Source of the DNA: Dickeya solani IPO 2222
GTDB lineage: Bacteria; Pseudomonadota; Gammaproteobacteria; Enterobacterales; Enterobacteriaceae
Assembly: GCF_001644705.1 (NCBI RefSeq)
Contig: NZ_CP015137.1
Coordinates: forward strand, 4,110,001-4,142,000
Direction: 5' to 3'
Length of the DNA stretch: 32,000 nucleotides
In this document: positions 15,806-30,776 of the stretch, piece after piece
How positions within the stretch are numbered: position 1 is the first letter of the stretch
Layout: each line of letters starts with the position of its first letter
The notes under the pieces: model-generated
Seen by the model: the letters and a program-made list of their open reading frames with translations, nothing else
Told to the model about the DNA's origin: nothing
Databases searched by the model: none
Position numbers and translations under genes: made by a program

Positions 15806-16799
15806 GGCGTGATCTGTCCTGTACCAGCGTGAGGGTCACCGGCATGCCCTGGCGCAGACCGTCGTCTGGGTCACTGACGATGATGCGCAGCCGGTAGACC
15901 AGATCGGTGCGCAACTCCGTGGTTTCGACATTTTTTGGCGTAAATTCGGCGCTCGGCGATACAAAGCCGATTCGGCCGTGATAGGGGCGGTTCGGGCGGC
16001 CGTCGGTGTAGATCCAGACTTCGCGGCCGGGCGCGGCACGCCCCAACTGAGTTTCATTGACGTAGGCGCGAATCCACACCGGATGGGTCAACGACAGGGT
16101 AAAGACGGTGCTGCCGGCGCTCAGCATGCTGCCGGCTTCGGCGGCCCGGGTCAGGATCACGCCGGGAGACGGCGCGTACAGGCGCGTATCCTGCAGATTC
16201 AACTGCGCCTGCGCTTCGGTGGCCTGCGCTTGCGCCAGCGCCGCTTCGGCGGCGGCGATTTCCTGCGGGCGGTTGCCGCGTTGATACTGGTTCAGTTTTT
16301 CTCGCGCCGCCTGCAGCGTCGCCTGCGTCTGGTTACGGGTGGAACGGGCGTCTTCCAGCGCGTTGACGGCGAGGGTGTGCTGTTTCCACAGGCCGAGCTG
16401 ACGCTGATAGAAACTGTTGGCGTAATCGTAGGCGGCCTGCGCCTGTTCCAGCTGTGAGCGCACCTGGGCGATTTCCTCGCTGCGGTAGCCTTCCCGCAGT
16501 AACGCCAGTTGCGCCTGCGCGCTGGCGACGCTGGCTTTCGCCTGCCGCAGTTCGTTCTGCAACGGTGCGCTATCCAGCCGGGCCAGCAGTTGACCCGGCT
16601 GGATAGCATCCCCTTCATCTACATTCAGGCCGGCCAGCCGCCCACCCACCCGAAACCCCAGATTGACGCTGCGGATATCTACATTACCGTACAGCGTCAG
16701 CGGTGCATCCTGCTGGCTACGATACTGTATCAGGCCGTAACCGACGGCGGTGACGACGATCAGCGCCAGCACCAGCCATAACCCTGTTTTCTTATTCAT
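15795..16799 (-). CDS. ybhG: HlyD-family membrane fusion/periplasmic adaptor protein YbhG
   Basis: From [16 protein letters not shown].. through [21 protein letters not shown] and [20 protein letters not shown] it matches E. coli YbhG. GGGAG Shine-Dalgarno precedes ATG 16799. The 74 upstream in-frame codons of the track ORF have no homology signal. Overlaps the ybhF start by 11 nt. Confidence 0.93.
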
Positions 16800-17246
16800 A
16801 GCGCTCCCGATATGACTTTGCGTCCCACTCTTGTTCGTCGATGTCGTTATTGCCGATTCCGTGTTGACGACGACGTACAGTAAGAATAATCCGTGATTCA
16901 ACAGATTGCCGTGTTCTGGCCGGCAGCGCGCTGATTCCGTGCGGGATACGCTGTCGTTACGGGGATGAAAACCGGTTTTTTTAATCAGTAACTGGTTGAT
17001 ATCCATGAAGAGCAGAATCATTTTGCGCAGAATGCGCAGGATAAAATGTGATCGACAGATAAAAATTCCTCAAACAAGCGATTTTCTGTTACAATCGCGC
17101 GCAGTCATGCACCGTAGTTTGTGCCCATTCATCTGGAGTCAGTATTGTGAGGCGTACGCGCCGGCGCGGTGCTGAACCCATCTGTTGTCACCCTGAAAAC
17201 TGCACCGGCGAATGCCGGGTAGGGTGAATCTGGAGTTGTTCTCGTT

Positions 17247-18614
17247 ATGTCTTTTGAATCTCTCGGCCTGAGTGCCGATATTTTGCGCGCTGTTGAAGAA
17301 CAGGGCTACCGTGAGCCGACGCCGGTTCAGCGTCAGGCGATTCCGGTGGTGCTGGAAGGGCGCGACCTGATGGCCAGCGCCCAGACGGGCACCGGCAAAA
17401 CCGCTGGTTTCACCCTGCCGCTGCTGCAAATGCTGAGCCACCGCCCGTCGCAGGCGAAAGGCCGTCGCCCGGTGCGGGCGTTGATCCTGACGCCGACACG
17501 CGAACTGGCGGCGCAGATCGGCGAAAACGTGCTGGCGTACAGCAAATACCTGCGTCTGCGCTCGCTGGTGGTGTTCGGCGGCGTCAGCATTAACCCGCAG
17601 ATGATGAAGCTGCGTAGCGGCGTCGATATTCTGATTGCCACGCCGGGCCGTCTGTTGGATCTGGAGCACCAGAACGCGGTCGACCTGTCGCAGGTGGAAA
17701 TTCTGGTGCTGGATGAAGCCGACCGCATGCTGGACATGGGCTTTATCCACGATATCCGCCGGGTACTGGCGAAGCTGCCGTCCAAACGGCAGAACCTGCT
17801 GTTTTCCGCCACCTTCTCCGATGAGATCAAGGAATTGGCCGGCAAGTTGCTCACCAATCCGGCGTCGGTGGAAGTGGTGCGCCGCAATACCCCGTCCGAA
17901 CTGGTGACCCAGCACGTGCATTTCGTGGACAAGAAACGCAAGCGCGAACTGCTGTCACACCTGATCGGCAAACACGACTGGCGGCAGGTGCTGGTGTTTA
18001 CCCGCACCAAGCACGGCGCTAACCACCTGGCGGAGCAACTGAATAAAGACGGCATCACCGCCGCCGCTATCCACGGCAACAAGAGCCAGGGCGCGCGTAC
18101 TCGTGCGCTGGCAAATTTTAAAGACGGCGACATCCGCGTGCTGGTGGCGACCGATATCGCCGCCCGCGGACTGGATATCGACCAGCTGCCGCATGTGGTG
18201 AACTACGAGCTGCCGAATGTGCCGGAAGATTACGTGCACCGTATCGGCCGCACCGGTCGGGCGGAATCTACGGGTGAAGCGTTGTCGCTGGTGTGTGTGG
18301 ATGAACACAAACTGCTGCGCGACATTGAGCGTCTGCTGAAGCGGGAAATCCCGCGGATGGAGATTGCGGGCTATGAGCCGGACCCGACTATCAAGGCCGA
18401 GCCGATCCAGAATGGCCGGCAGGGTGGGCGTGGCGGTCACGGTGGCGCGCCGCGTCACGGCGATCGTCCACAAGGCGAACGCACATCTGGACGCCCGCAG
18501 GGCGAGCGCCCTCATCAGCCGCGTCGTGAAGGTGCCGCGCGCCCGGCCGGACAACGTCCGGAAGGGCAATCCGCCCGCCGCCGTCCGCCGCGTAAACCGG
18601 CCGGCGGACAGTAA
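17247..18614 (+). CDS. rhlE: ATP-dependent RNA helicase RhlE (DEAD-box)
   Basis: [45 protein letters not shown] (VLDEADRM), SAT and HRIGRTGRA motifs, plus a basic disordered C-terminal tail. Near-identical to E. coli RhlE over the core. Confidence 0.97.
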
Positions 18615-19581: not shown

Positions 19582-19771
19582 CGTCAGACTCCCCAAACAA
19601 CAGATACATTCAGTATCCGGCATGGGTGGAATCATGGCTGTCAGCAGATTGCGGCGAGTAGCAGAATCCTGCGGTTTTTTTATTTCAAACTGATTCCGGC
19701 ACCGGCATGGGTCATGTCTCCATGCAACCCCCCGCAGCACGTTTTCCCACCGTTTATGAGCGTAACGATAT

Positions 19772-19783
19772 GGCTATCGTTCC
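19772..19783 (+). repeat. left copy of the 12-bp perfect direct repeat GGCTATCGTTCC flanking the acc-like module
   Basis: Exact 12-mer also present at 26867-26878 in the same orientation. With the following 8 nt, 16 of 20 positions match (..gtggCTGG versus ..tgacCTGG). Confidence 0.55.
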
Positions 19784-20009
19784 GTGGCTGGCTGAGCGCC
19801 AGCATCTGGCGCGAGCCAGCGCCGCCATTGGTAAGTGAGCGATTTCGTTCATTAAGATGGTGCTGGGTGTACCGCGCAGTCTCCTTATCTGGCAACGCTT
19901 TGATGGCGGTAATGGACGCAATTTCTTCATACAAGTGTCATCTGAAAAGGATAGGGTTCGCTCAGATTGTTGATCGATAACGGTCACGATAATGACAAGG
20001 AACACCCTT

Positions 20010-20783
20010 ATGCTGACTCAGGCGGAAGAGCGTCAGGCGAAAATCGTTGAATTTCTGCGCGAAGAGAATTTTGTTGATCTGCGCACGTTAACGAAGCGAT
20101 TCGAGGTGTCGGTCGCCACCGTCCGTCGGGATCTTTGCGACCTTGAAGGCGCTGGAATGCTGCGCAGGACGCATGGCGGCGCGGTTAATATCAATCAGGT
20201 CGCTCTGGACGCGACAAACGAGGCCCGTGCCGTCTGGAATCAGGCGGAGAAGGCGGCCATCGCCACTGCCGTCGCCGCAATGATTGCCGATGGCGACACC
20301 GTGCTTCTGGATGCCGGTACGACCGCGCTGGAAGTGGCTAAAAAGCTCGTCGGTCGTCAGAGCCTGACGCTGATCTCGAATGGCCTTGATATCATTGCTG
20401 AATTTTCGCGAGGCGAGGGGCAAAGCATTTACTCGGTCGGGGGCGAATTTACCGCAACGAACCGCTCATTCAGAGGCCCTTTGGCGGAGTATTTCATACG
20501 GCAGTTCAATGTCGACAAACTCATCCTGAATGCCGCGTCGATCGACGTCGACCGTGGTTTGATCTGCACTTCATCGCCGGTGAATGCGAGTGTCGCACGG
20601 GCCATGATCGACGTGTCGAACCGCGTCATTGTGGTGGCTGACCACTCGAAGTTCACAAAATCAAGCCTCTCGGTCATCACCCGGATAGAAGACGTGGGCG
20701 TCATTGTTACTGATGCCGGCGCCCGCGGCATCATCGAAACAGTACCTGAAAAACTGCGCAAGAAGTTTGTCATCGCGCACTGA
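20010..20783 (+). CDS. DeoR/GlpR-family transcriptional repressor (AccR-like); alternative start at 19992
   Basis: N-terminal wHTH (RQAKIVEFLREENFVDLRTLTKRFEVSVATVRRDLCDLE) plus a C-terminal DeoR sugar-phosphate sensor domain (DGDTVLLDAGTT ... VADHSKF). AAGG Shine-Dalgarno precedes ATG 20010. Confidence 0.9.
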   Translation: MLTQAEERQAKIVEFLREENFVDLRTLTKRFEVSVATVRRDLCDLEGAGMLRRTHGGAVNINQVALDATNEARAVWNQAEKAAIATAVAAMIADGDTVLLDAGTTALEVAKKLVGRQSLTLISNGLDIIAEFSRGEGQSIYSVGGEFTATNRSFRGPLAEYFIRQFNVDKLILNAASIDVDRGLICTSSPVNASVARAMIDVSNRVIVVADHSKFTKSSLSVITRIEDVGVIVTDAGARGIIETVPEKLRKKFVIAH

Positions 20784-20830
20784 ACCCCGACCCTCTGGTC
20801 GACGGCCCCGCTACTTAAGGAGTGGTTTGG

Positions 20831-22393
20831 ATGAAGATAAGAACCTTTATCGGTATGGCGGCGGTGATCGCCATATCCCTTTCAGGTGGAATCGCGGCCG
20901 CTCAGGAAGATAATCGTCCTGAGTTACGGATCGCGGTTCAGAAAAACCCGGAGACACAGGAGCCGGTCGACGCTGCGTCCAACGTCGCTTTCCGTAACAA
21001 TCCCTCGATTCACGAGACGCTGCTGAAACTTGACCTTGAGGGTCACTTCTCGGTGCAGCCGAATCTGGCGACCTCGTGGCGATGGATTGACGATAAAACC
21101 CTCGAAGTAAAGCTGCGCAAGGGGGTTATTTTCCATGACGGTCGTGAGATGACCGCTGAGGACGTCGCTTTTTCGTTCGGGCCGGAACGGTTGACTGACC
21201 CGAAGGCACCCGGTTATCCAACCTATCTGACCAGCTTTAGCAGTCTTGCGCATGTCGACGTGGTGGACCCGGACACCGTCCGTTTCGTCACCAAGTTCAA
21301 GGACCCCATCTTGTTACAGCGACTGGCCAGTTATGCCGCGGTGGTTATCAGCAAAGATGCCTGGGTTAAGATGGGCGGCGACTGGGCTAAGTGGAAGCAG
21401 AAACCGGTCGGCGCCGGCCCTTACAAGGTTCTCGAATCTGTCGCTAACGATCATGTCACGTTGGTCGCTCACGATCGGTATTTCGGTGGAAAGCCTAATG
21501 CGAAGCGCGTCACCTTCAGGGTGGTGCCGGAAGTGTCATCCCGTATCGCCGGCCTTCTGGCGGGCGACTATGACATCGCGACCGATCTGCCGCCGGACCA
21601 GCTCGACGTGGTGAACAAGTCCGGTAGCGCGACGATCGTCGGAGGCCCGGTGCCGAACAACCGCATCCTCTTCTTCGACAAGTACAACCCGGCGCTTAAG
21701 GATCCGCGCGTGCGTCAGGCGCTGATTCTTGCTATCGACCGTCAGGCGATCGTCGACACCATCTGGAACGGCCTGACCGTCGTCCCGAACGGCGAGCAGT
21801 TCAAGGAGTTCGGCCCCATCTACATGAAGGACCGGCCGAAATACGAATACAATCCGGAAAAAGCCCGGCAACTGCTGAAAGCGGCCGGCTACAAAGGCGA
21901 ACCGATCGCAATCCGCTCGCAGAACAACTACTACACGGCGGAAAACCCGGTCAGCGAAGCGGTCGTCGCCATGTGGCAGGCGGTCGGTATCAACGCCAAA
22001 CTGGAGTTTGTTGAAGCCGGCAAGCTCTTCGATAACGCCAACGGCCGGACGACCGGCAACTGGTCCAGCACCGCGGTTATTGCCGACCCTTACGTTTCCA
22101 TCTACTCGATGGCGTTCGCCAGAACCGCATCGATGGGCACGCAGAAGATCTGGATCAATGATGAATTCGATGCGCTCGGCGCAAAGCTTGAACAGGCCGT
22201 AGCCCCGGCGGATCGTGCCAAAATTTTCTCCGACATGCTGGACATCATTGAATGGAAGGACCCAGGCATCACGGTCCTTCACCAGAACGCCGTCTTCTTC
22301 GGCGTCTCCAACAAGGTGAAGTGGAAACCGCAGCACGCCTTCGCGATGGATCTGGGTCCGCAAAACCTGTCCTTCGTCAATGCCGCCATGTGA
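20831..22393 (+). CDS. ABC transporter periplasmic substrate-binding protein, family 5 (peptide/opine/nickel cluster C; AccA-like)
   Basis: Signal peptide MKIRTFIGMAAVIAISLSGGIAAAQ. Family-5 hallmarks include LATSWRWIDDKTLEVKLRKGVIFHDGREMTAEDVAFS and KPVGAGPYK. TAAGGAG Shine-Dalgarno lies 8 nt before ATG 20831. Confidence 0.9.
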   Translation: MKIRTFIGMAAVIAISLSGGIAAAQEDNRPELRIAVQKNPETQEPVDAASNVAFRNNPSIHETLLKLDLEGHFSVQPNLATSWRWIDDKTLEVKLRKGVIFHDGREMTAEDVAFSFGPERLTDPKAPGYPTYLTSFSSLAHVDVVDPDTVRFVTKFKDPILLQRLASYAAVVISKDAWVKMGGDWAKWKQKPVGAGPYKVLESVANDHVTLVAHDRYFGGKPNAKRVTFRVVPEVSSRIAGLLAGDYDIATDLPPDQLDVVNKSGSATIVGGPVPNNRILFFDKYNPALKDPRVRQALILAIDRQAIVDTIWNGLTVVPNGEQFKEFGPIYMKDRPKYEYNPEKARQLLKAAGYKGEPIAIRSQNNYYTAENPVSEAVVAMWQAVGINAKLEFVEAGKLFDNANGRTTGNWSSTAVIADPYVSIYSMAFARTASMGTQKIWINDEFDALGAKLEQAVAPADRAKIFSDMLDIIEWKDPGITVLHQNAVFFGVSNKVKWKPQHAFAMDLGPQNLSFVNAAM

Positions 22394-22403
22394 GGTTGTC
22401 ACG

Positions 22404-23285
22404 ATGCGTGAATCCGTTCTCTCGATTCAAGACTTGAGTATTTCCTTTCGCGCCGGAAAGACCAGAACGACGCCGGTCAAGTCGGTATCCTTTGACGTCA
22501 AGGAGGGCGAAATCCTGGGTATTGTGGGGGAGAGCGGTTCCGGAAAGTCGCTTTCATGCCTCGCCGTAGCCGGCCTGCTACCGGCAACGGCCCTGGCTTC
22601 CGGTTCGGTCGCCATTGGCGACCAGACGTTCGCCGCCGCCGATCTGCAACACGCGCTGGCGTCGAAACAACTTCCGCCTATCGGCATGATCTTCCAGGAA
22701 CCCGTATCCTGTCTCAATCCGGTACGCAGCGTTGGCGAGCAAATCGCCGAGGCGGCGCGAAGTGCCGGGCACCCTGCGGAAGAAGCCCGCAAGATTGCGC
22801 TAGAGCTCCTTAAGGACGTCGCCATCGACGAGCCGGAGACGCGCTACCATGATTATCCTTCGCAATTTTCCGGCGGTATGTGCCAGCGCGTCATGATCGC
22901 CACGGCGCTGGCGCTGGAACCGCAACTCGTCATCGCCGACGAGCCAACGACCGCACTCGACGTCACTGTCCAGGCTCAGGTGGTGTCGCTGCTGGTGTCG
23001 CTGGTGCGCAGCCGCGGCATTGCCATGATTTTCATCAGCCACGACCTTGATCTGGTCGCGGAGGTCTGCGATCGCATCGTCGTGATGTACGGCGGCGAGA
23101 TCATGGAAGTCGGCACGACTGAAAGCGTCTATGAACGACCGAGTCATCCCTACACCCGGCTTTTGCTCGACGCGATGCCGGGGCACGGCGAACCGCTCAC
23201 CCGATTGGTGGAAATGCCTCAGCACTGGCGGCTCGACGCGGCTGCATCACTAACCTCAGCAACCTCAGCGGAGCGCTTGTCATGA
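22404..23285 (+). CDS. ABC transporter ATP-binding protein (OppD/DppD-like)
   Basis: Walker A GESGSGKS, signature [15 protein letters not shown], Walker [18 protein letters not shown] Shine-Dalgarno precedes ATG 22404. Confidence 0.93.
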
Positions 23286-24154
23286 GTGTGCAAGCAATAG
23301 GCAGGCCGACCGTTCTTGAGGCCCGCGATCTGGATTTCACTTATCACGCTGGATTTTCTCTTTTGCCGGGCGGTCGGGTCGGTCACCATGCCGTCCGCGG
23401 TGTTTCCCTCACGCTTGGTCAGGGCGAAACGCTCGGTTTGGTCGGCGAGTCCGGATGCGGGAAATCAACCCTTGCCGCACTGCTGTGCGGCGACTACCCG
23501 CCGGATCATGGAACAATGGAACTCTTCGGCGAACCCTTCGCCAGCTATCTCAGGCCGAATCGCCGGCGTTTGGCTCGCGTTCTCCAGGTCGTCGCACAGG
23601 ATACGCTCGGGGCCTTCGACCCGCGCCATACCATCGGCCGGCAGATCGAGGAAGTGCTCTTTATTCATGCTATCGGCTGCAAGAGCGAGCGGCGCGATAG
23701 GGCTAAAGACGCGCTCGGTGCCGTTGCGCTGCCGGGCGCTATGCTAGACCGCTATCCGCATCAGATGTCGGGAGGCCAGAGGCAACGTGCCGCCATCGCT
23801 CGGGCGCTGGTGACCGAACCCAAGATCCTGCTGTGCGATGAACCGGTCTCGGCGCTGGATGTGTCGGTCCAGGCGCAGGTGCTCAATCTCCTGCTCGAGC
23901 TCCAGGAGAAGCGCGGTCTTTCGATCCTGTTCATCAGTCACGATGTGCGTGTGGTACGCCATGTGTCGCACCGGGTCGTCGTGATGCAGGCCGGTCGTGT
24001 AGTGGAGAGCGGGCCGACGTCAACCGTCTTCGCCGCGCCGTCCGATCCCTATACCGCGAAACTGCTGGCTGCCGTGCCGAAAGGGAAGCGGCGCGCCACG
24101 TCTGCGGATAGGGCGAGTAACCGCTCAATTCTGACGGAGGCGAGAGCATGCTGA
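23282..24154 (+). CDS. ABC transporter ATP-binding protein (OppF/DppF-like)
   Basis: Walker A GESGCGKST, signature MSGGQRQRAAIARAL, Walker B LLCDEPVSALD. ATGA overlap with the preceding ATPase gene. Confidence 0.93.
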   Translation: MSVQAIGRPTVLEARDLDFTYHAGFSLLPGGRVGHHAVRGVSLTLGQGETLGLVGESGCGKSTLAALLCGDYPPDHGTMELFGEPFASYLRPNRRRLARVLQVVAQDTLGAFDPRHTIGRQIEEVLFIHAIGCKSERRDRAKDALGAVALPGAMLDRYPHQMSGGQRQRAAIARALVTEPKILLCDEPVSALDVSVQAQVLNLLLELQEKRGLSILFISHDVRVVRHVSHRVVVMQAGRVVESGPTSTVFAAPSDPYTAKLLAAVPKGKRRATSADRASNRSILTEARAC

Positions 24155-25074
24155 ACATCATGACCGGCTCCTTTTTTCGCGCGATATTGACGGTTTTTCT
24201 TGTCGTTACCTTCACCTTCGTCATGCTGCGCATCAGCGGCGACCCGATGACGTCGCTCCTCGGTGTCGAAGCCCCGCCGCAGGTGGTTGACATGCTGCGC
24301 CAGCAATGGGGTTTGGATCGCCCGGTGACCGAACAGTATTTCACCTATCTCGCACGGATGCTGACCGGCGATTTCGGCACCTCGCTGCGAAGCGGTCAGG
24401 ACGCGCTTGCCATCATCATTGAGAAGGTTCCGGCGACGCTGCGGCTGATGGCGGCTGCGCTGGTACTGGCGCTGGCGGCAGGTGTCCCGCTGGGTATCGT
24501 CGCGGCACGCTATCGTGGCGGATTTGTCGACCGTGCGGTGATGAGCCTCGCCGTGTTGACGCACTCTGTGCCAACCTTCCTGACCGGCATTCTCTTGATC
24601 CAGCTGTTTGCCGTGAAGTTGCGGCTGCTGCCCTCTGGCGGCGGGTCGACGCTCGCCCACATGGTGATGCCTACCCTGGTGATCGGGCTTTACAATGCCG
24701 GCGTCATCGCGAGATTCGTCCGTTCAAGCGCGCTGGAGGTTATCGGGCAACGCTATATCCTCGCCGCCCGAGCGAAGCGGGTATCGGAGTGGGGGCTTAT
24801 CGTGAGGCATGTGATGCCGAACGCAGCGCTTCCCTTACTGACACTGCTCGGATTCCTGCTCGGCGGCATGATCGGCGGCTCAGCGGTGATCGAGGCGGTA
24901 TACGCCTGGCCCGGCGTCGGCCTGCTACTTATCAGTTCGGTCGCTTCCCGCGACGTCGCGGTGGTGCAGGCGATTGTCATTCTCATCACCGTTGCCATGG
25001 TCAGCGCCAACCTGCTGGTCGATTTCCTGCATGCGATGGCTGACCCCCGTCTGCGCTACGCGAAACGGGCTTGA
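24148..25074 (+). CDS. ABC transporter permease (DppB/OppB-like)
   Basis: Six-TM BPD-transport protein with N-terminal ..RAILTVFLVVTFTFVMLRISGDPM typical of DppB/OppB. GGAGG Shine-Dalgarno lies 7 nt before ATG 24148. Overlaps the ATPase stop by 7 nt. Confidence 0.9.
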   Translation: MLNIMTGSFFRAILTVFLVVTFTFVMLRISGDPMTSLLGVEAPPQVVDMLRQQWGLDRPVTEQYFTYLARMLTGDFGTSLRSGQDALAIIIEKVPATLRLMAAALVLALAAGVPLGIVAARYRGGFVDRAVMSLAVLTHSVPTFLTGILLIQLFAVKLRLLPSGGGSTLAHMVMPTLVIGLYNAGVIARFVRSSALEVIGQRYILAARAKRVSEWGLIVRHVMPNAALPLLTLLGFLLGGMIGGSAVIEAVYAWPGVGLLLISSVASRDVAVVQAIVILITVAMVSANLLVDFLHAMADPRLRYAKRA

Positions 25075-25085
25075 GGGAGGGATTC

Positions 25086-25964
25086 ATGGCCGATATCACC
25101 CCCGAATCACCCAAGCTGCTTTCCGGCTTCTTCGCCGGACTTCCACGCATCAATCCGCTGCTGGCGGTATGCGTGTTGGTCATCGTGCTTGCCGTCGGTC
25201 TTGCCGTATTCGCCGACGTGCTGGCGCCATATGGCTTCGCCCAGATCGACCTGAGGGCACGCAAGATGCCGCCACTCCACTTCGGGGCCGGTTCCACGCA
25301 TTGGCTCGGCACCGATGAGATGGGGCGCGATATCCTAAGCCGCATCTTCTACGCGCTGCGTATGAGCATCTTGATATCGCTCGGCGCGTCGATCATCAGC
25401 ATGATCATCGGTACGGCGCTTGGCCTCATCTCAAGTTTCCGTCGTGGTCTCGTCGACGCCATCATTCGGGTGGCGGTCGATTTTCAGGCCTCCATGCCGT
25501 TTATTATCATTGCCCTCACGGTGCTGGCGTTTCTCGGCAACAGCCTCACTCTTTTTATCTGCCTGCTTGGTTTGTTTGGTTGGGAACGGTTTGCGCGCCT
25601 GACGCGGACCATGGCCGGTCTTGAACTGGGAAAGCCCTATATCGCCGCTCTGCATCGCAATGGCGCGGGGAGTTTTCGTATCGCGATGGTTCACGTTCTT
25701 CCCAATATCCTGGCTGTGGTACTGGTCACATTCACGGTGGTGATGCCTGAAATCCTCATTCTGGAATCGTCGCTGAGTTTCCTTGGCCTCGGTGTGCAGC
25801 CGCCACAGGTCAGCCTGGGTTCCTTGGTTGGCGCCGGCCGCGACTACATCATGACCGAGTGGTGGATCGCTATCGTTCCGGGCGTGGTCATCTTCGTCCT
25901 GTCGCTAACCATTAGTCTCATCGGCGACCAGCTACGCGACATCTTTGACCCGACACTGAAATGA
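25086..25964 (+). CDS. ABC transporter permease (DppC/OppC-like)
   Basis: HWLGTDEMGRDILSRIFYALRMSI, the conserved DppC/OppC N-terminal motif. GGGAGG Shine-Dalgarno lies 5 nt before ATG 25086. Confidence 0.9.
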   Translation: MADITPESPKLLSGFFAGLPRINPLLAVCVLVIVLAVGLAVFADVLAPYGFAQIDLRARKMPPLHFGAGSTHWLGTDEMGRDILSRIFYALRMSILISLGASIISMIIGTALGLISSFRRGLVDAIIRVAVDFQASMPFIIIALTVLAFLGNSLTLFICLLGLFGWERFARLTRTMAGLELGKPYIAALHRNGAGSFRIAMVHVLPNILAVVLVTFTVVMPEILILESSLSFLGLGVQPPQVSLGSLVGAGRDYIMTEWWIAIVPGVVIFVLSLTISLIGDQLRDIFDPTLK

Positions 25965-26042
25965 TCGAAGCGCGCTGATTTCATCGCGCAGCGCGATTGA
26001 GCGCGAAACCGCGCTAAACGAATGTAAACAGGAGGAATGAAC

Positions 26043-26843
26043 ATGAATCCGCTAAGAATGACGCCAGAGACCCTGCGCCTCGGCGGCCACCGCGGCCATA
26101 GCGCCGGGGCACCGGAAAACACCCTCGCCGCGTTTAAAAAGGCGTTTGAATACGGCGGCCGCGGCGTGACCTGTGAAACCGACCTCGGCATCACCCGCGA
26201 TGGCGAACTGGTGCTGATTCACGACAACACGGTTGACCGCACCACCAACGGTCGCGGCCTGGTGCAAAACATGACCTATGCCGAACTCGCCCAACTCGAT
26301 GCCGGACAATGGTTCAGCCATGAATTCGCCGGAGAGCGCGTTCCGCGGCTCAGGGATGCGCTACAGCTTGCCCGCGAGCTTGGCATCATCTATCAGCTTG
26401 AGCTCAAGTTATACGATCGCAATGAGGTGCTTTTCCCGAAGCTCAGCGCGCTGATTGATGAACTGGACTGTGCCGACCTGTTGCAGTTTTCCTCGTTTGA
26501 CTACGTGCAACTGAAGGCGGTGAAAGCGGCGATACCTGAAGTGCCGACCGTCGGACTGATGCATTCTCGTTTGATCGACCCTGCCGCGCTGGCCCGGCAA
26601 GCCAACCTTGATGCGATGAACATTGAGATCTACCACTTTGCCAGCGGAGAGGCGCGCCAGCTGCATGACGAGGGCTTTGCCGCCTTCCTCTACCTGCCTG
26701 CTCAGGAACACCAGAAGCGCAAGGACTACGGTGTCGATATCGAAGCTCAGGTCGTGCAATGGATTCGTGAGGGGCAGTTGGATCAACTGCTGGGCGATGA
26801 CGTTGCTCAGGTAGCAAGACTCAAAGAAGAAGCCTGTGGCTGA
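26043..26843 (+). CDS. glycerophosphodiester phosphodiesterase family protein (GDPD; UgpQ/AccF-like), cytoplasmic
   Basis: GDPD catalytic motifs GGHRGHSAGAPENT, CETDL and LIHDNTVDRTTNG. No signal peptide. AGGAGG Shine-Dalgarno lies 7 nt before ATG 26043; ATG 26037 is too close to it. Confidence 0.88.
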   Translation: MNPLRMTPETLRLGGHRGHSAGAPENTLAAFKKAFEYGGRGVTCETDLGITRDGELVLIHDNTVDRTTNGRGLVQNMTYAELAQLDAGQWFSHEFAGERVPRLRDALQLARELGIIYQLELKLYDRNEVLFPKLSALIDELDCADLLQFSSFDYVQLKAVKAAIPEVPTVGLMHSRLIDPAALARQANLDAMNIEIYHFASGEARQLHDEGFAAFLYLPAQEHQKRKDYGVDIEAQVVQWIREGQLDQLLGDDVAQVARLKEEACG

Positions 26844-26866
26844 TACGTAGATGGTGCCCTGACGCG

Positions 26867-26878
26867 GGCTATCGTTCC
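26867..26878 (+). repeat. right copy of the 12-bp perfect direct repeat GGCTATCGTTCC
   Basis: Identical to 19772-19783. Lies 23 nt after the GDPD stop, in the short spacer before the AraC-family gene. Confidence 0.55.
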
Positions 26879-26957
26879 TGACCTGGAAAGACCCATTCCT
26901 AATGGTGGGCGCTTGTTTTACTCTGTGGCCTGAGGCGATATTTTTGCAGGGTGATAG

Positions 26958-27833
26958 ATGAGTCAGTACGAGGCGTTCGAGGTGTTACAGCATTATAAAA
27001 CCCAGTTGCAGGAAACGGTCACGCTTGCCAACGAGGTGCAACTGGCGGTCTGGCGGAACAGTCACGACCGGGTCACGTTAGAGAACGCCCACCACCACAC
27101 GTTCAGCATGTACGTGCAGGACGGCTACGAAAGCTACCACAAGCGCCCGGACGGGTGGTTCAACGGCGGTGCGCCGGGGCGTTTTTGTCTGATGCCGAAA
27201 GAGAGCCAGTCCACCTGGGATATTCGCGGTAGCCTGCGTTTCGCCCACTTTTACTGTACCGATCAGCACCTGCGCCAGTTGGCGGAGCAAACCTGGGATC
27301 GCAGCCCGACGTCGATCCGTCTTGATGAACGCATTTTTATCGTCGACCCGGCGCTGGAGGCGCTGTACCGCCATTTTCTGCTCGCCGGCAACTGGGGCGA
27401 CCCGGCCAGTCAGATGACGCTGAGTTCCGCTTCCACGCTGGTGATGCTGCATATGTTGCGTCAGTACAGCCAGTTGCAGTGGCAGGCGCCGAACAGCCGC
27501 GGCGGGCTGGCCCCGGCGGTGCTGCGGCGGGTAAAAGCGCGGATTGACGCCGGGCTGGGGGAGCCGCTCACGCTGGCCGAGCTGGCGGCGGAAGCCGATC
27601 TTAGCGAGTTTCATTTTTCCCGCATGTTCCGCCAGAGCGAAGGCATGGCGCCGCATCAGTATGTGATGAAGCGGCGACTGGCGCAGGCGGAACAGTGGCT
27701 GCGCCACAGCCGTCGTTCCATCACCGATATCGCGCTGGCCTGCGGGTTCAGCTCCGCCAGTCATTTCAGCCAGCGTTTTCGCGCCGAATACGGCATCACG
27801 CCCTCGGCGCTGCGCCAGCAATGCTCAGGCTGA
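26958..27833 (+). CDS. AraC-family transcriptional regulator
   Basis: C-terminal double HTH (LTLAELAAEADLSEFHFSRMFRQSEGMAPHQYVMKRRL ... ITDIALACGFSSASHFSQRFRAEYGITPS) with an N-terminal ligand/dimerisation domain. Confidence 0.88.
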   Translation: MSQYEAFEVLQHYKTQLQETVTLANEVQLAVWRNSHDRVTLENAHHHTFSMYVQDGYESYHKRPDGWFNGGAPGRFCLMPKESQSTWDIRGSLRFAHFYCTDQHLRQLAEQTWDRSPTSIRLDERIFIVDPALEALYRHFLLAGNWGDPASQMTLSSASTLVMLHMLRQYSQLQWQAPNSRGGLAPAVLRRVKARIDAGLGEPLTLAELAAEADLSEFHFSRMFRQSEGMAPHQYVMKRRLAQAEQWLRHSRRSITDIALACGFSSASHFSQRFRAEYGITPSALRQQCSG

Positions 27834-29066
27834 AGGCTGCTGCGCCGCCAGCAGACACAGCGTCAACGCCACCTGATAGGATTTGACGAACGACGGCACC
27901 GGCAGAAACTCAAAGCGTGAATGGAAGTTGTGCGCGCCGGTAAAAAAGTTCGGCGTCAGGATACCTTTGGCCGACAGCGCCGCGCCGTCGGTGCCGCCGC
28001 GCATTGGAATTACGTTCGGCGCAATCGACAGGGTGTTCATGGCGGCGAACAGCAGATCCAGCGCCCGCCGGTCGTCTCCCAACGCGTTGCTGATGTTGCT
28101 GTAGATATCGGCGATGGCGCAACTGACCTGACCGGTTGGGTAGAGGGCGGCGATCTGCGCCGCGACGTCGCGTATCTGCTGTTTACGCTGTGCAAATCCG
28201 GTCAGATCGAAATCGCGGATCGAAGCTTTCAGCACCGCTTCATTGGCGTTGGCGTGAATGTCGTTGAACCAGACGTAGCCTTCGCGGCCTTCGGTGTGCT
28301 CCGGGGTGTGCCGGCGGTCAAACTGGCCGATGAAATCGTGCGCCATCAGGATCGGGTTGACCAGTACGCCTTTGGCCGACATCGGGTGTGCGGTCACGCC
28401 GGTAAAACGGATTTCCGCTGCGGCGGCGTTAAAATTCTCGTACACCACTTCGCCCAGTTCGCAGCAGTCGATGGTGTAGGCGAAATCGACGTCGAAACGC
28501 GCCAGATCCAGCGCTTTAGCGCCTCTTAGCCCAATCTCCTCATCCGGCACGAACGCCACCACGATATCGCCGTGCGGCTGGTCGTCGCGCAGGTTTTCCA
28601 GCAGCGTCATCACCACGGTGACGGCGGCTTTGTTGTCTGCCCCCAGCACGCTGGTGCCATCGCTGAAAATAATCTCCTGATCGCGGTAGGGCAGGATCTC
28701 CGGATGCTCGCCGACCCGCAGCCAGATGTCCTGCGCCGGATTGAGACACAGGTCTTCGCCGCTAAAACGCAGGATTTGCGGGTGAATCTCCGGCGACAGG
28801 CCGACATCCACGGTGTCGATATGGGTGATGAAGCCGATGCGCGGCGCGGACGGTGTGTTGCCCGGCTTCACCGCGGTGACGGTGGCGTGCTCGTCGCACA
28901 CCACCTGGCTCAGCCCCAGCGCGCGCAATTCCTCCGCCAGTAGCCGGGCCATCGCCATTTGGCCCGGCGTGCTCGGCAGCGTGGTCGAGGCGGCGTCGCT
29001 TTGACTGGTGACCGCCAGATAGCGGTAGAAACGGTCGGTCAACTGACGCGCCGGGTTATTGCTCAT
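27825..29066 (-). CDS. pepT: peptidase T-type tripeptide aminopeptidase (M20B family), divergent paralog
   Basis: M20B motifs ITHIDTV, GADNKAA, PDEEIGLRGA and MRGGTDGA are collinear with E. coli PepT, but the sequence is clearly diverged. AAGGA Shine-Dalgarno lies 6 nt before ATG 29066. Its 3' end overlaps the AraC gene's 3' end by 9 nt (convergent). Confidence 0.86.
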   Translation of the reverse strand: MSNNPARQLTDRFYRYLAVTSQSDAASTTLPSTPGQMAMARLLAEELRALGLSQVVCDEHATVTAVKPGNTPSAPRIGFITHIDTVDVGLSPEIHPQILRFSGEDLCLNPAQDIWLRVGEHPEILPYRDQEIIFSDGTSVLGADNKAAVTVVMTLLENLRDDQPHGDIVVAFVPDEEIGLRGAKALDLARFDVDFAYTIDCCELGEVVYENFNAAAAEIRFTGVTAHPMSAKGVLVNPILMAHDFIGQFDRRHTPEHTEGREGYVWFNDIHANANEAVLKASIRDFDLTGFAQRKQQIRDVAAQIAALYPTGQVSCAIADIYSNISNALGDDRRALDLLFAAMNTLSIAPNVIPMRGGTDGAALSAKGILTPNFFTGAHNFHSRFEFLPVPSFVKSYQVALTLCLLAAQQPSA

Positions 29067-29180
29067 AGCGGATCCTTATTGGTAAACCAGTCGAAAAATT
29101 CGGTATTGTTTTCAAAAATAATCAAAGGTTTCGTTGTACTCAGCGAGCCGCCCGGAAGTCAATAAAAAACGAGGATAGGG

Positions 29181-30776
29181 ATGAAAAACGCAATAACGCG
29201 CGTCGCGCTGGCGGCGCTGACGCTGGCGGCCGCTCAGACGGCGTGCGCCAAAACGCTGGTGTACTGTTCAGAAGGCTCACCGGAGAATTTTAACCCGCAG
29301 CTGTATACCTCCGGCACCAGTGTAGACGCCAGCGCGGTGCCGATTTACAACCGGCTGGTGGATTTTAAGGTTGGCACCACCGAACTGGCGCCAAGTCTGG
29401 CGGAAAGCTGGGATATCAGCCCGGATGGCACCCAATACACGTTTCATCTGCGTAAAGGGGTGAAGTTTCATCACAACGCGCAGTTTACCCCGAGCCGCGA
29501 TTTCAACGCCGATGACGTGATTTTCTCTTTTCAGCGCCAGCGCGACCCCAACCACCCGTATCACAAGGTATCCGGCGGCACCTATGCCAATTTCGAGAGC
29601 CTGTCGTTCCGCAGCCTGATTACCGCCATCGACAAGCCGGATGATTACACGGTGCGTTTTACCCTGAGCCATGCGGAAGCGCCGTTTCTGGCTGATTTGG
29701 CCTGGTATTTCGCGTCGATCCTGTCCGCTGAATACGCCGACCAGATGCTAAAGGCCGGCACGCCGGAGAAAGTGGATCTGGAACCGATCGGCACCGGCCC
29801 GTTCCAACTGGCGCAGTACCAGAAAGATTCCCGCATTCTGTATCAGGCGTTCCCCGACTACTGGCAGGGCAAAGCGAAACTGGATCGACTGGTGTTCAGC
29901 ATCACGCCGGACGCCTCGGTGCGTTACGCCAAGCTGCGCAAGAACGAATGTCAGGTGATGCCGTTTCCCAATCCGGCGGAACTGGCGGACATGAAGAACA
30001 ATAAGGACATCACCCTGATGCAGAAAGCCGGCTTGAACATCGGTTTTCTGGCCTTCAACACCCGTAAAGCGCCGCTGGATAACGTCAAGGTGCGTCAGGC
30101 GCTGACGATGGCGATCAACAAACCGGCGATTATCGAGGCGGTGTTTCAGGGCACCGGCACCGCGGCCAAAAACCTGCTGCCGCCCGGCGTATGGAGCGCG
30201 GCAACTGACCTGAAGGACGATGAATACGACCCGGAAAAAGCCAGAGCGCTGCTGAAAGAAGCCGGACTGGCGGAAGGAACCGCTATCGATCTGTGGGCGA
30301 TGCCGGTACAGCGGCCGTATAACCCCAATGCGCGCCGCATGGCGGAAATGATTCAGGCCGACTGGGCGAAGGTGGGGGTAAAAGCGAATATCGTCAGTTA
30401 TGAGTGGGGCGAATACCTCAAACGGGTGAGGAGCGGCGAGCATCAGGCGGCGCTGATGGGCTGGACCACCGCTACCGGCGATCCGGACAATTTCTTCGGC
30501 CCGCTGTTTACCTGTACTTCCGCCAATGGCGGGTCCAACTCCGCCAAATGGTGCTACCCACCGTTTGATAAGCTGATTACCGACGCGCGCGCCGAGCAGG
30601 ATCACCAGAAACGCGTGGAATTATATCGTCAGGCGCAGTTCATGATGCATGAGCAGGCGCCGGCGGTGATGATCGCGCACTCGACTATCTTTGAGCCGGT
30701 GCGCAACACGGTGACGGGCTATGAAATCGACCCGTTCGGCAAACACATTTTCTATCAGGTGGATATCCGGCAGTAA
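29181..30776 (+). CDS. DppA-family periplasmic dipeptide-binding protein, orphan (no adjacent permease or ATPase genes)
   Basis: Signal peptide MKNAITRVALAALTLAAAQTACA. The mature KTLVYCSEGSPENFNPQLYTSG ... WAMPVQRPYNPNARRMAEMIQADWAKVGV is very close to E. coli DppA as I recall it. GAGGA Shine-Dalgarno. A strong terminator follows. Confidence 0.9.
   Translation: MKNAITRVALAALTLAAAQTACAKTLVYCSEGSPENFNPQLYTSGTSVDASAVPIYNRLVDFKVGTTELAPSLAESWDISPDGTQYTFHLRKGVKFHHNAQFTPSRDFNADDVIFSFQRQRDPNHPYHKVSGGTYANFESLSFRSLITAIDKPDDYTVRFTLSHAEAPFLADLAWYFASILSAEYADQMLKAGTPEKVDLEPIGTGPFQLAQYQKDSRILYQAFPDYWQGKAKLDRLVFSITPDASVRYAKLRKNECQVMPFPNPAELADMKNNKDITLMQKAGLNIGFLAFNTRKAPLDNVKVRQALTMAINKPAIIEAVFQGTGTAAKNLLPPGVWSAATDLKDDEYDPEKARALLKEAGLAEGTAIDLWAMPVQRPYNPNARRMAEMIQADWAKVGVKANIVSYEWGEYLKRVRSGEHQAALMGWTTATGDPDNFFGPLFTCTSANGGSNSAKWCYPPFDKLITDARAEQDHQKRVELYRQAQFMMHEQAPAVMIAHSTIFEPVRNTVTGYEIDPFGKHIFYQVDIRQ

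Follow-up and report, generated by a model that had tools for sequence, protein, structure and literature searches.

We propose that a seven-gene operon on the chromosome of the soft-rot bacterium Dickeya solani IPO 2222 is an orthologue of the agrocinopine (acc) operons of the type carried by plasmid pAtK84b of Rhizobium rhizogenes K84. The operon, accR-accABCDE-accF, occupies positions 20010-26843 of the window, the 32,000-nucleotide (nt) stretch analysed here (contig NZ_CP015137.1, positions 4,110,001 to 4,142,000), and coordinates given below are window positions unless another locus is named. We put at roughly 0.7 the probability of this explanation, by which the operon passed by horizontal transfer from a Rhizobiaceae-like donor into an ancestor of D. 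solani, D. dadantii and D. fangzhongdai and was handed down vertically from then on as a working unit. It is a chromosomal, trimmed member of the pAtK84b-type acc family in soft-rot Pectobacteriaceae, and not a new kind of system. The initial annotation, made from the letters alone, had described an acc-like operon for the uptake and cleavage of a sugar phosphodiester in an enterobacterial, probably plant-associated host other than Agrobacterium. That description is well supported: the host is an Enterobacterales plant pathogen, AccA proteins are the top structural matches of the binding protein, AccR and AccF are orthologous to their namesakes, and the whole is colinear with pAtK84b. The match is, judged from the sequences compared, closer than had been supposed, the nearest relative being a cluster of the pAtK84b type.

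Organization and identity of the operon

Both the list of open reading frames (ORFs) and the public gene calls on the identical contig, from which gene starts are taken, place seven co-directional genes on the + strand in the order accR-accA-accB-accC-accD-accE-accF. The first, accR (20010-20783), encodes a DeoR/GlpR-family repressor of 257 amino acids (aa) with the Pfam domains HTH_DeoR and DeoRC; accA (20831-22393, with an alternative GTG start at 20822) encodes a periplasmic family-5 binding protein of 520 aa that matches SBP_bac_5 with E = 8e-80. The two ATPases of an ATP-binding cassette (ABC) transporter follow, OppD-like AccB (22404-23285, 293 aa) and OppF-like AccC (23282-24154, 290 aa), each with ABC_tran and oligo_HPY domains, and then the two ABC permeases, DppB-like AccD (24148-25074, 308 aa; BPD_transp_1 and the N-terminal domain of BPD_transp_1) and DppC-like AccE (25086-25964, 292 aa; BPD_transp_1 and OppC_N). 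The last gene, accF (26043-26843, with an alternative ATG start at 26037), encodes a cytoplasmic GDPD-family protein of 266 aa (Pfam GDPD, E = 1e-34), a predicted agrocinopine phosphodiesterase in whose translation the GDPD motifs GHRGHSAGAPENT, CETD and LIHD can be read directly. Overlaps of 4 nt (ATGA) and 7 nt join accB to accC and accC to accD, respectively, and the other spacers measure 10-78 nt. The tight packing, the family of every product (each domain being found by Pfam) and the GDPD motifs, listed initially as HRG..PENT, ETD and HD, are thus confirmed, and the placement of the ATPases ahead of the permeases, named initially as a trait of pTiC58, agrees with the annotated acc operon of that plasmid.

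By family alone, the genes could be taken for a generic oligopeptide, dipeptide or nickel importer lying beside a housekeeping UgpQ-like glycerophosphodiesterase for phosphate scavenging, since the products match components of Opp, Dpp, Nik and Gsi systems and GDPD at the family level in Pfam and NCBIfam, and the public annotation reads mostly 'ABC transporter substrate-binding protein'. We consider this explanation effectively refuted. All products stay below the NCBIfam equivalog cutoffs of the named systems for peptides, nickel and glutathione and of UgpQ/GlpQ: the scores are 147 bits vs a cutoff of 600 for NikA, 132 vs 594 for GsiB, 112 vs 1005 for DppA and 71 vs 947 for OppA, and AccF reaches 132.5 of 264 bits for PRK09454 (UgpQ-type) and 27.6 of 254 for GlpQ. 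A PDB sequence search with AccA returns as its best matches the AccA proteins of Agrobacterium tumefaciens C58, Bo542 and A. vitis S4 (E = 1e-73 to 2e-77), the next family following at 1e-35, so that AccA lies about 40 orders of magnitude ahead of all peptide and nickel binders. An AlphaFold2 model of the Dickeya protein (mean predicted local distance difference test, pLDDT, 92.3; predicted template modelling score, pTM, 0.88) gives the same picture, for the top 11 fold matches found by Foldseek in the PDB are all AccA (template modelling score, TM, 0.88-0.94; E about 1e-50), with dipeptide binders at 1e-42. In the model, residues 395-407 form a coil between two strands and are the equivalent of loop 402-414, a flexible loop that AccA has where other cluster-C binding proteins have a helix (PMC4526662). 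Moreover, the GDPD gene is joined to the transporter in all close relatives, and the regulator is an AccR orthologue and not a Pho- or peptide-responsive protein. Against the first outcome that the initial annotation had named as fatal to its reading, the best homologues are therefore acc proteins of the pAtK84b type and not generic peptide or nickel systems, and the GDPD gene is nowhere unlinked among the close relatives.

Relationship to the acc operons of pAtK84b and pTiC58

In blastn, window positions 19924-26844 are colinear with accR-accABCDE-accF2 of pAtK84b over 6.9 kb at 78-80% DNA identity. The five transporter proteins are far nearer to pAtK84b than to pTiC58: AccA is 83-86% identical to the pAtK84b copies and 33% to the C58 protein, and the corresponding values are 86% and 43% for AccB, 86% and 46% for AccC, 87% and 45% for AccD, and 86% and 46% for AccE. 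AccR shares 76% identity with pTiC58 AccR (257 aa) and 76-78% with the two pAtK84b copies, and AccF shares 84% with pTiC58 AccF (266 aa), 82% with AccF2 of pAtK84b and 51% with AccF1. Relative to pTiC58 the operon is, by these identities, a mosaic in which AccR and AccF are orthologous and the transporter AccA-E is of the K84 type. With the pTiC58 operon (accR-accABCDEFG, said to have been described by Kim and Farrand in 1997) it has in common the gene order from R to F, an operator-like inverted repeat and the phosphate-binding residues of AccA; it differs in that AccA-E belong to another transporter lineage and in that accG and the divergent arc operon with traR are lacking. The match to the pTiC58 locus claimed initially thus holds for AccR, AccF and gene order, and does not extend to AccA-E, accG or arc/traR. 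At the nucleotide level, only accR and accF are homologous to pTiC58, which fits the report that the ACC regions of nopaline Ti plasmids and of plasmids for opine catabolism (OC plasmids) share about 76% average nucleotide identity over less than 22% of their length (PMC6546132).

All seven genes stand in the same order and orientation in the acc cluster of pAtK84b (Arad_14131-14123), which recurs near-identically on pOC-Colt5.8, on plasmids of walnut A. tumefaciens and on Ti plasmids of A. vitis/Allorhizobium; plasmid proteins named accA on these replicons match Dickeya AccA at 83-86%. The likeness extends to 78-87% protein identity, to the same promoter/operator block and to the same pattern of AccA contact residues. 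The differences are that the Dickeya copy is chromosomal whereas the K84 copy is on a plasmid, that the spacer between accR and accA is 47 bp in Dickeya vs about 190 bp in K84, and that Dickeya is without accF1 (the leading member of the K84 pair of GDPD genes, skipped where the alignment to the K84 locus, L001, jumps from 17137 to 18093), accG, the duplicated accR-accA pair and the arc/traR conjugation link, no traR or arc genes being found among the ORFs of the window. Plasmid pAtK84b reportedly enables its host to catabolize nopaline and agrocinopines A and B (PMC4231840, PMC6546132).

On pAtK84b itself, region 80461-100011 (reverse complement) holds three acc-like clusters side by side. 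Cluster 1 is a divergent accA'-B'-C'-gdpD-D'-E' set adjoining mannopine-synthesis-like and SmoC-like genes, cluster 2 a solo accR-accA pair, and cluster 3 the full accR-accABCDE-accF1-accF2-accG. Of the AccA copies, the solo one (Arad_14132) is nearest to Dickeya AccA, at 86%.

The candidate upstream regulatory block

Upstream of accR (19926-19980, + strand) lies a candidate promoter/operator block, about 55 nt long, that contains a GTCAT direct repeat (TCATAC at 19927-19932 and GTCATCT at 19937-19943) followed by the inverted repeat CGCTCA-N6-TGATCG (19959-19976). Conserved across four lineages, it can be aligned between Dickeya, the two pAtK84b copies of accR, pTiAv2 and pTiC58, and it is also present upstream of accA in Pectobacterium; in C58 the inverted repeat is perfect (CGCTCA-N5-TGAGCG). 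Its conserved position marks it as a candidate AccR operator, a role that we infer from that position. A sigma-70 consensus scan gave no convincing promoter upstream of accR.

In P. polaris the block lies about 75 nt upstream of accA, accR having been cleanly removed, and the inverted repeat has degenerated (GGTCAA...TGATCA).

A genomic island in Dickeya

The operon forms a 7.2-kb island (19710-26884) in the 4.9-Mb chromosome, between eamA and araC. As delimited by blastn, Dickeya core DNA ends at 19709 and resumes at 26885, and homology to pAtK84b spans 19924-26844. The flanks are Dickeya core synteny, with ybhGFSR-like genes, rhlE and eamA on one side and araC, pepT, an orphan family-5 binding protein gene and dus on the other. 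D. dianthicola and D. zeae have this site but not acc, and the order in them is rhlE, eamA (- strand), an AraC-family gene (254/271 aa) with an EamA gene (320 aa), araC291, pepT (- strand), the binding protein gene and dus. In D. dadantii and D. fangzhongdai, accR-accF stands at this very site, between eamA and the AraC+EamA pair. That the operon might be accessory within the species, as a scan of a contig collection without any Dickeya locus had suggested, was rejected, for the exact protein occurs in at least 43 D. solani contigs and the operon also in D. dadantii and D. fangzhongdai; the collection returned no Pectobacterium locus either, and the genomes of both genera seem to be masked or missing there, which makes absence from it uninformative.

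The left junction segment (19710-19923, 214 nt) matches only acc-positive Dickeya, D. dadantii at 87.5% and D. fangzhongdai at 81%, and neither acc-negative Dickeya nor any of the Agrobacterium and Rhizobium loci compared contains a match; the segment may derive from the flanks of a donor not yet sampled. The right junction (26845-26884, 40 nt) has no match outside D. solani, and homology to K84 ends at the accF stop, three accG codons being left. A 59-aa ORF that overlaps the accF stop in D. fangzhongdai was considered as a remnant of accG and discarded, as it has no similarity to AccG. No tRNA gene, insertion sequence (IS) element or significant flanking repeat was found at the island borders; an 11-nt match, GCTATCGTTCC, near both of them was dismissed as an insertion mark because it also occurs inside accE and is within chance expectation.

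The AraC-family (254-271 aa) and EamA (320 aa) pair beside the island is missing from D. solani (window 26845-26957). Since the pair is present both in acc-positive D. dadantii and D. fangzhongdai and in acc-negative D. dianthicola and D. zeae (16022-18164 in the D. dadantii locus L042, 16000-18431 in L043 and 12436-14230 in L038), its loss is, on this comparison, a deletion specific to the D. solani lineage and directly adjoining the island. Between accF and the AraC-family gene of D. dadantii there is a tandem array of a 16-nt unit, TGTTTGTAGTAGACCG, with 6.4 copies and 81% matches (L042 16075-16184); D. fangzhongdai has a shorter array and D. solani none.

Inheritance and selective constraint

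Between D. solani and D. fangzhongdai, the ratio of nonsynonymous to synonymous substitution rates (dN/dS) is 0.06-0.18 over the seven acc genes, 0.09 for accR, compared with 0.06 for the core gene rhlE, and the synonymous divergence (dS) of the acc genes is 0.25-0.37 vs 0.23 for rhlE. By this measure the operon is under strong purifying selection, and the values are consistent with vertical inheritance of functional genes since these two species separated. Synonymous divergence from pAtK84b amounts to 0.8-1.4, from which it follows that the transfer is old, and the base composition at third codon positions (GC3) of the acc genes is host-like.

The same data bear on whether the island is a decaying relic of an old transfer without current function. 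Such decay would account for the loss of accG, accF1 and arc/traR relative to pAtK84b, for the further deletion beside the island in D. solani and for the loss of accR in Pectobacterium; however, in three Dickeya species none of the seven ORFs is broken or shortened, their constraint is similar to that of a core gene, the upstream regulatory block is conserved and GC3 resembles that of the host, and we consider a relic very improbable.

Relatives beyond Dickeya

Database searches return few close relatives outside the Rhizobiaceae. The largest group is in Pectobacterium (P. polaris, P. brasiliense and P. carotovorum), where a 120-member cluster is 86% identical to the Dickeya binding protein and accABCDE-accF, 81-86% identical to Dickeya, is inserted between cysH and cysG, as on the P. 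polaris contig JBEHFD010000015.1 (locus L044, 9694-16160). The Pectobacterium cluster has the same promoter block as that of Dickeya but sits at a different chromosomal site and lacks accR. In Paraburkholderia sp. J8-2 (CAJMZA010000010.1), the binding protein is 78% and accABCDE 78-84% identical, and the cluster is preceded by a GDPD gene 56% identical to AccF. The rhizobia of the R. tropici group have a transporter of 63-74% identity that is paired with an unrelated GDPD and has no AccR.

In a neighbour-joining tree of concatenated AccABCDE, Dickeya joins Pectobacterium with 61% bootstrap support, and the sister of the two is the Agrobacterium plasmid clade (100%), with Paraburkholderia and then Rhizobium outside, and pTiC58 is the outgroup to the 100%-supported clade of all these. 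An origin in the Rhizobiaceae would be the most parsimonious reading of this topology, with one or two entries into the Pectobacteriaceae. Three regulatory states of one operon can be compared, AccR being coupled to quorum sensing in Agrobacterium, alone in Dickeya and absent in Pectobacterium.

The Paraburkholderia locus also holds, within 8 kb, genes for an AccG-like inositol monophosphatase, a DUF4432 protein, a LuxR-type autoinducer-binding regulator and a methyl-accepting chemotaxis protein, a layout that resembles the acc/arc region, here in a betaproteobacterium.

The ligand pocket of AccA and the identity of the substrate

In C58 AccA, the pocket for pyranose-2-phosphate is formed by Asn54, Asn284, Ser419 and Glu510, which anchor OH1, by Tyr375 and Tyr376, which hold the phosphate, and further by Tyr145, Trp178, Met372, residues 418-421, Trp423, Thr430, Glu434 and residue 504 (PMC4526662). 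The last of these is printed there as Glu504 and is Trp in the aligned sequence. Dickeya AccA is identical at seven of the 13 contact positions compared (N54, Y145, N284, Y375, Y376, S419 and W504), thus keeping three of the four OH1 anchors and both phosphate tyrosines; Trp418 is also identical, and W178Y and T430S are conservative changes. The contact-residue pattern is the same in both pAtK84b copies. Tyr145 is present in C58 AccA and in 11/11 of the members with at least 68% identity among 48 family members, in 4/19 of those at 52-59%, and in none at 41-45%. According to their PDB titles, 8c6u and 8cdo are Bo542 AccA engineered at position 144/145 (to Tyr) and 440 (to Gln), which suggests that these positions set specificity for agrocinopine A vs agrocinopine C/D; Dickeya AccA has Tyr at the equivalent of 145 and Ser at a tentatively aligned position 440. 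The pocket is compatible with a sugar-2-phosphate ligand.

Several observations weigh against agrocinopine as the substrate and against the derivation proposed here. The pocket residues M372Q, W423V, E434M and the OH1 anchor E510A are replaced relative to C58 AccA, the Dickeya residues being Q364, V416, M427 and A505 in the numbering of its own protein, W178Y also differing, so the modelling and contact-residue check that had been suggested for the binding protein upholds the fold, the phosphate tyrosines and three OH1 anchors and leaves these positions unmatched. The phosphate and OH1 core is kept among the 48 family members down to 41% identity; it is therefore not diagnostic of agrocinopine, and the pocket is no proof of it. 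Identity between the K84-type AccA-E and the C58 proteins studied biochemically reaches only 33-46%. Agrocinopine use is assigned to the plasmid pAtK84b as a whole and not to this cluster, which is one of its three acc-like clusters. No remnant of accG, a gene of the inositol-monophosphatase family, is found by tblastn in the window or in other Dickeya loci. The operator motif occurs once in the window vs 0.37 occurrences expected by chance, which is not significant alone. Finally, Dickeya is not, to our knowledge, a resident of crown galls.

These points raise the question of whether the same acc-derived machinery serves another substrate in soft-rot bacteria, either an unknown plant or microbial phosphodiester or glucose-2-phosphate esters like agrocinopines C and D. 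The pocket differences from C58 would speak for such a change, and the persistence of the phosphate core far into the wider family suggests many sugar-phosphate ligands. Purifying selection in pathogens not known from galls, the retention of the operon without AccR in Pectobacterium and the pairing of the same type of transporter with an unrelated GDPD in the R. tropici group point the same way. On the other side, AccF and AccR are so near their C58 counterparts that a large shift in specificity would not be assumed by default, and the contact pattern is that of the pAtK84b copies, from a plasmid that confers use of agrocinopines A and B (PMC4231840). We therefore regard a different substrate as unlikely. 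The sensitivity to agrocin 84 envisaged in the initial annotation is not supported and is left open, given that only part of the contact residues are identical and that the transporter is not of the C58 type.

Proposed pathway and source of the substrate

Taking the operon as an agrocinopine operon of the pAtK84b type, we propose that it was inserted between eamA and the araC-family gene in the common ancestor of the acc-positive Dickeya species. In cells without substrate, AccR would bind the block upstream of accR and keep the single accR-accABCDE-accF transcription unit at a low level. By homology, AccA would capture a phosphodiester of the agrocinopine A/B type through a buried pyranose-2-phosphate and hand it to the AccBCDE importer. 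AccF, 84% identical to a characterised enzyme, would cleave it to sucrose (or glucose) and L-arabinose-2-phosphate, and the sugar-2-phosphate would then bind AccR and derepress the operon, as its 76% identity to C58 AccR suggests; release of the C58 repressor by the sugar-2-phosphate has been demonstrated. Since neither accG nor arc/traR is present, the output would be nutritional only (carbon and phosphorus), and a host phosphatase would have to dephosphorylate the sugar-2-phosphate. Dickeya would thus act as a 'pirate' on a compound from Agrobacterium-transformed tissue or from naturally transgenic plants.

A search for agrocinopine synthase (ACS) revealed no homologue in Dickeya or Pectobacterium, although very distant synthases could be missed by this shared-word search. 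The ACS homologues found are restricted to plasmids of Agrobacterium, Rhizobium and Sinorhizobium and to cellular T-DNAs (cT-DNAs) of plants, namely Ipomoea batatas (66%) and Nicotiana noctiflora. For want of such a homologue, the soft-rot bacteria look like consumers, and not producers, of an agrocinopine-type compound. D. dadantii is a pathogen of sweet potato. The sweet potato synthase IbACS is stated to make agrocinopine A and to shape the rhizosphere microbiota (preprint 10.64898/2025.12.18.694140).

The soft-rot Pectobacteriaceae may accordingly keep acc for a reason unconnected with galls, namely agrocinopine-type compounds in healthy, naturally transgenic hosts, for which IbACS, at 66% identity to T-DNA ACS, is an example, or, in a variant of this idea, an unknown plant sugar-2-phosphodiester. 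We put this forward tentatively and with low expectation. If true, a necrotrophic pathogen would owe a private nutrient, or a cue for recognizing its host, to a plant gene of ancient cT-DNA origin.

The concept is the same as in the xanthosan system of Xanthomonas (AvrBs2-XanT-XanP), in which a sugar phosphodiester made in the plant cell by a GDPD-derived synthase is imported and cleaved as a private nutrient (PMC12807533). The parts are unrelated, the Xanthomonas system using a TonB-dependent transporter and a 2H phosphoesterase, and Xanthomonas makes its own synthase whereas Dickeya has no detectable ACS or AvrBs2-like gene.

Full-text literature searches that paired Dickeya or Pectobacterium with agrocinopine or opine brought up no description of this operon or of its growth, induction or agrocin 84 phenotypes, and the operon has apparently never been studied experimentally in Dickeya. 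The UniRef names 'AccR' and 'Agrocinopine phosphodiesterase' for D. solani D s0432-1 indicate that the similarity had already been registered in annotation.

Opine catabolism is the textbook case of a private nutritional niche, built by Agrobacterium. By the reading preferred here, plasmids of the Rhizobiaceae were the source of a complete, regulated agrocinopine operon that now sits in the chromosomes of the potato soft-rot pathogens of greatest economic importance, and the retention of this operon under selection across species suggests that these necrotrophs regularly meet agrocinopine-type compounds. The predictions are that mixed infections involve opine piracy, that naturally transgenic crops expressing ACS are exploited, and that Trojan-horse antibiotics based on the pyranose-2-phosphate motif may have a way in.

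Other features of the window

A candidate terminator, a hairpin followed by a run of T (26892-26909, + strand), was found by consensus scan alone downstream of accF, in Dickeya core DNA. Adjoining the island, region 27825-30776 carries pepT (peptidase T, - strand) and the orphan family-5 binding protein gene (29181-30776, 531 aa), which has no neighbouring permease or ATPase genes and whose product, at 27-28% identity, is unrelated to AccA; both genes are kept in all Dickeya loci examined. Near the start of the window, Rfam identifies a molybdenum cofactor (Moco) riboswitch (RF01055, 1725-1868, + strand; 88.6 bits vs a gathering score of 36), which lies immediately upstream of, and overlaps the start of, the ORF at 1823-2845.

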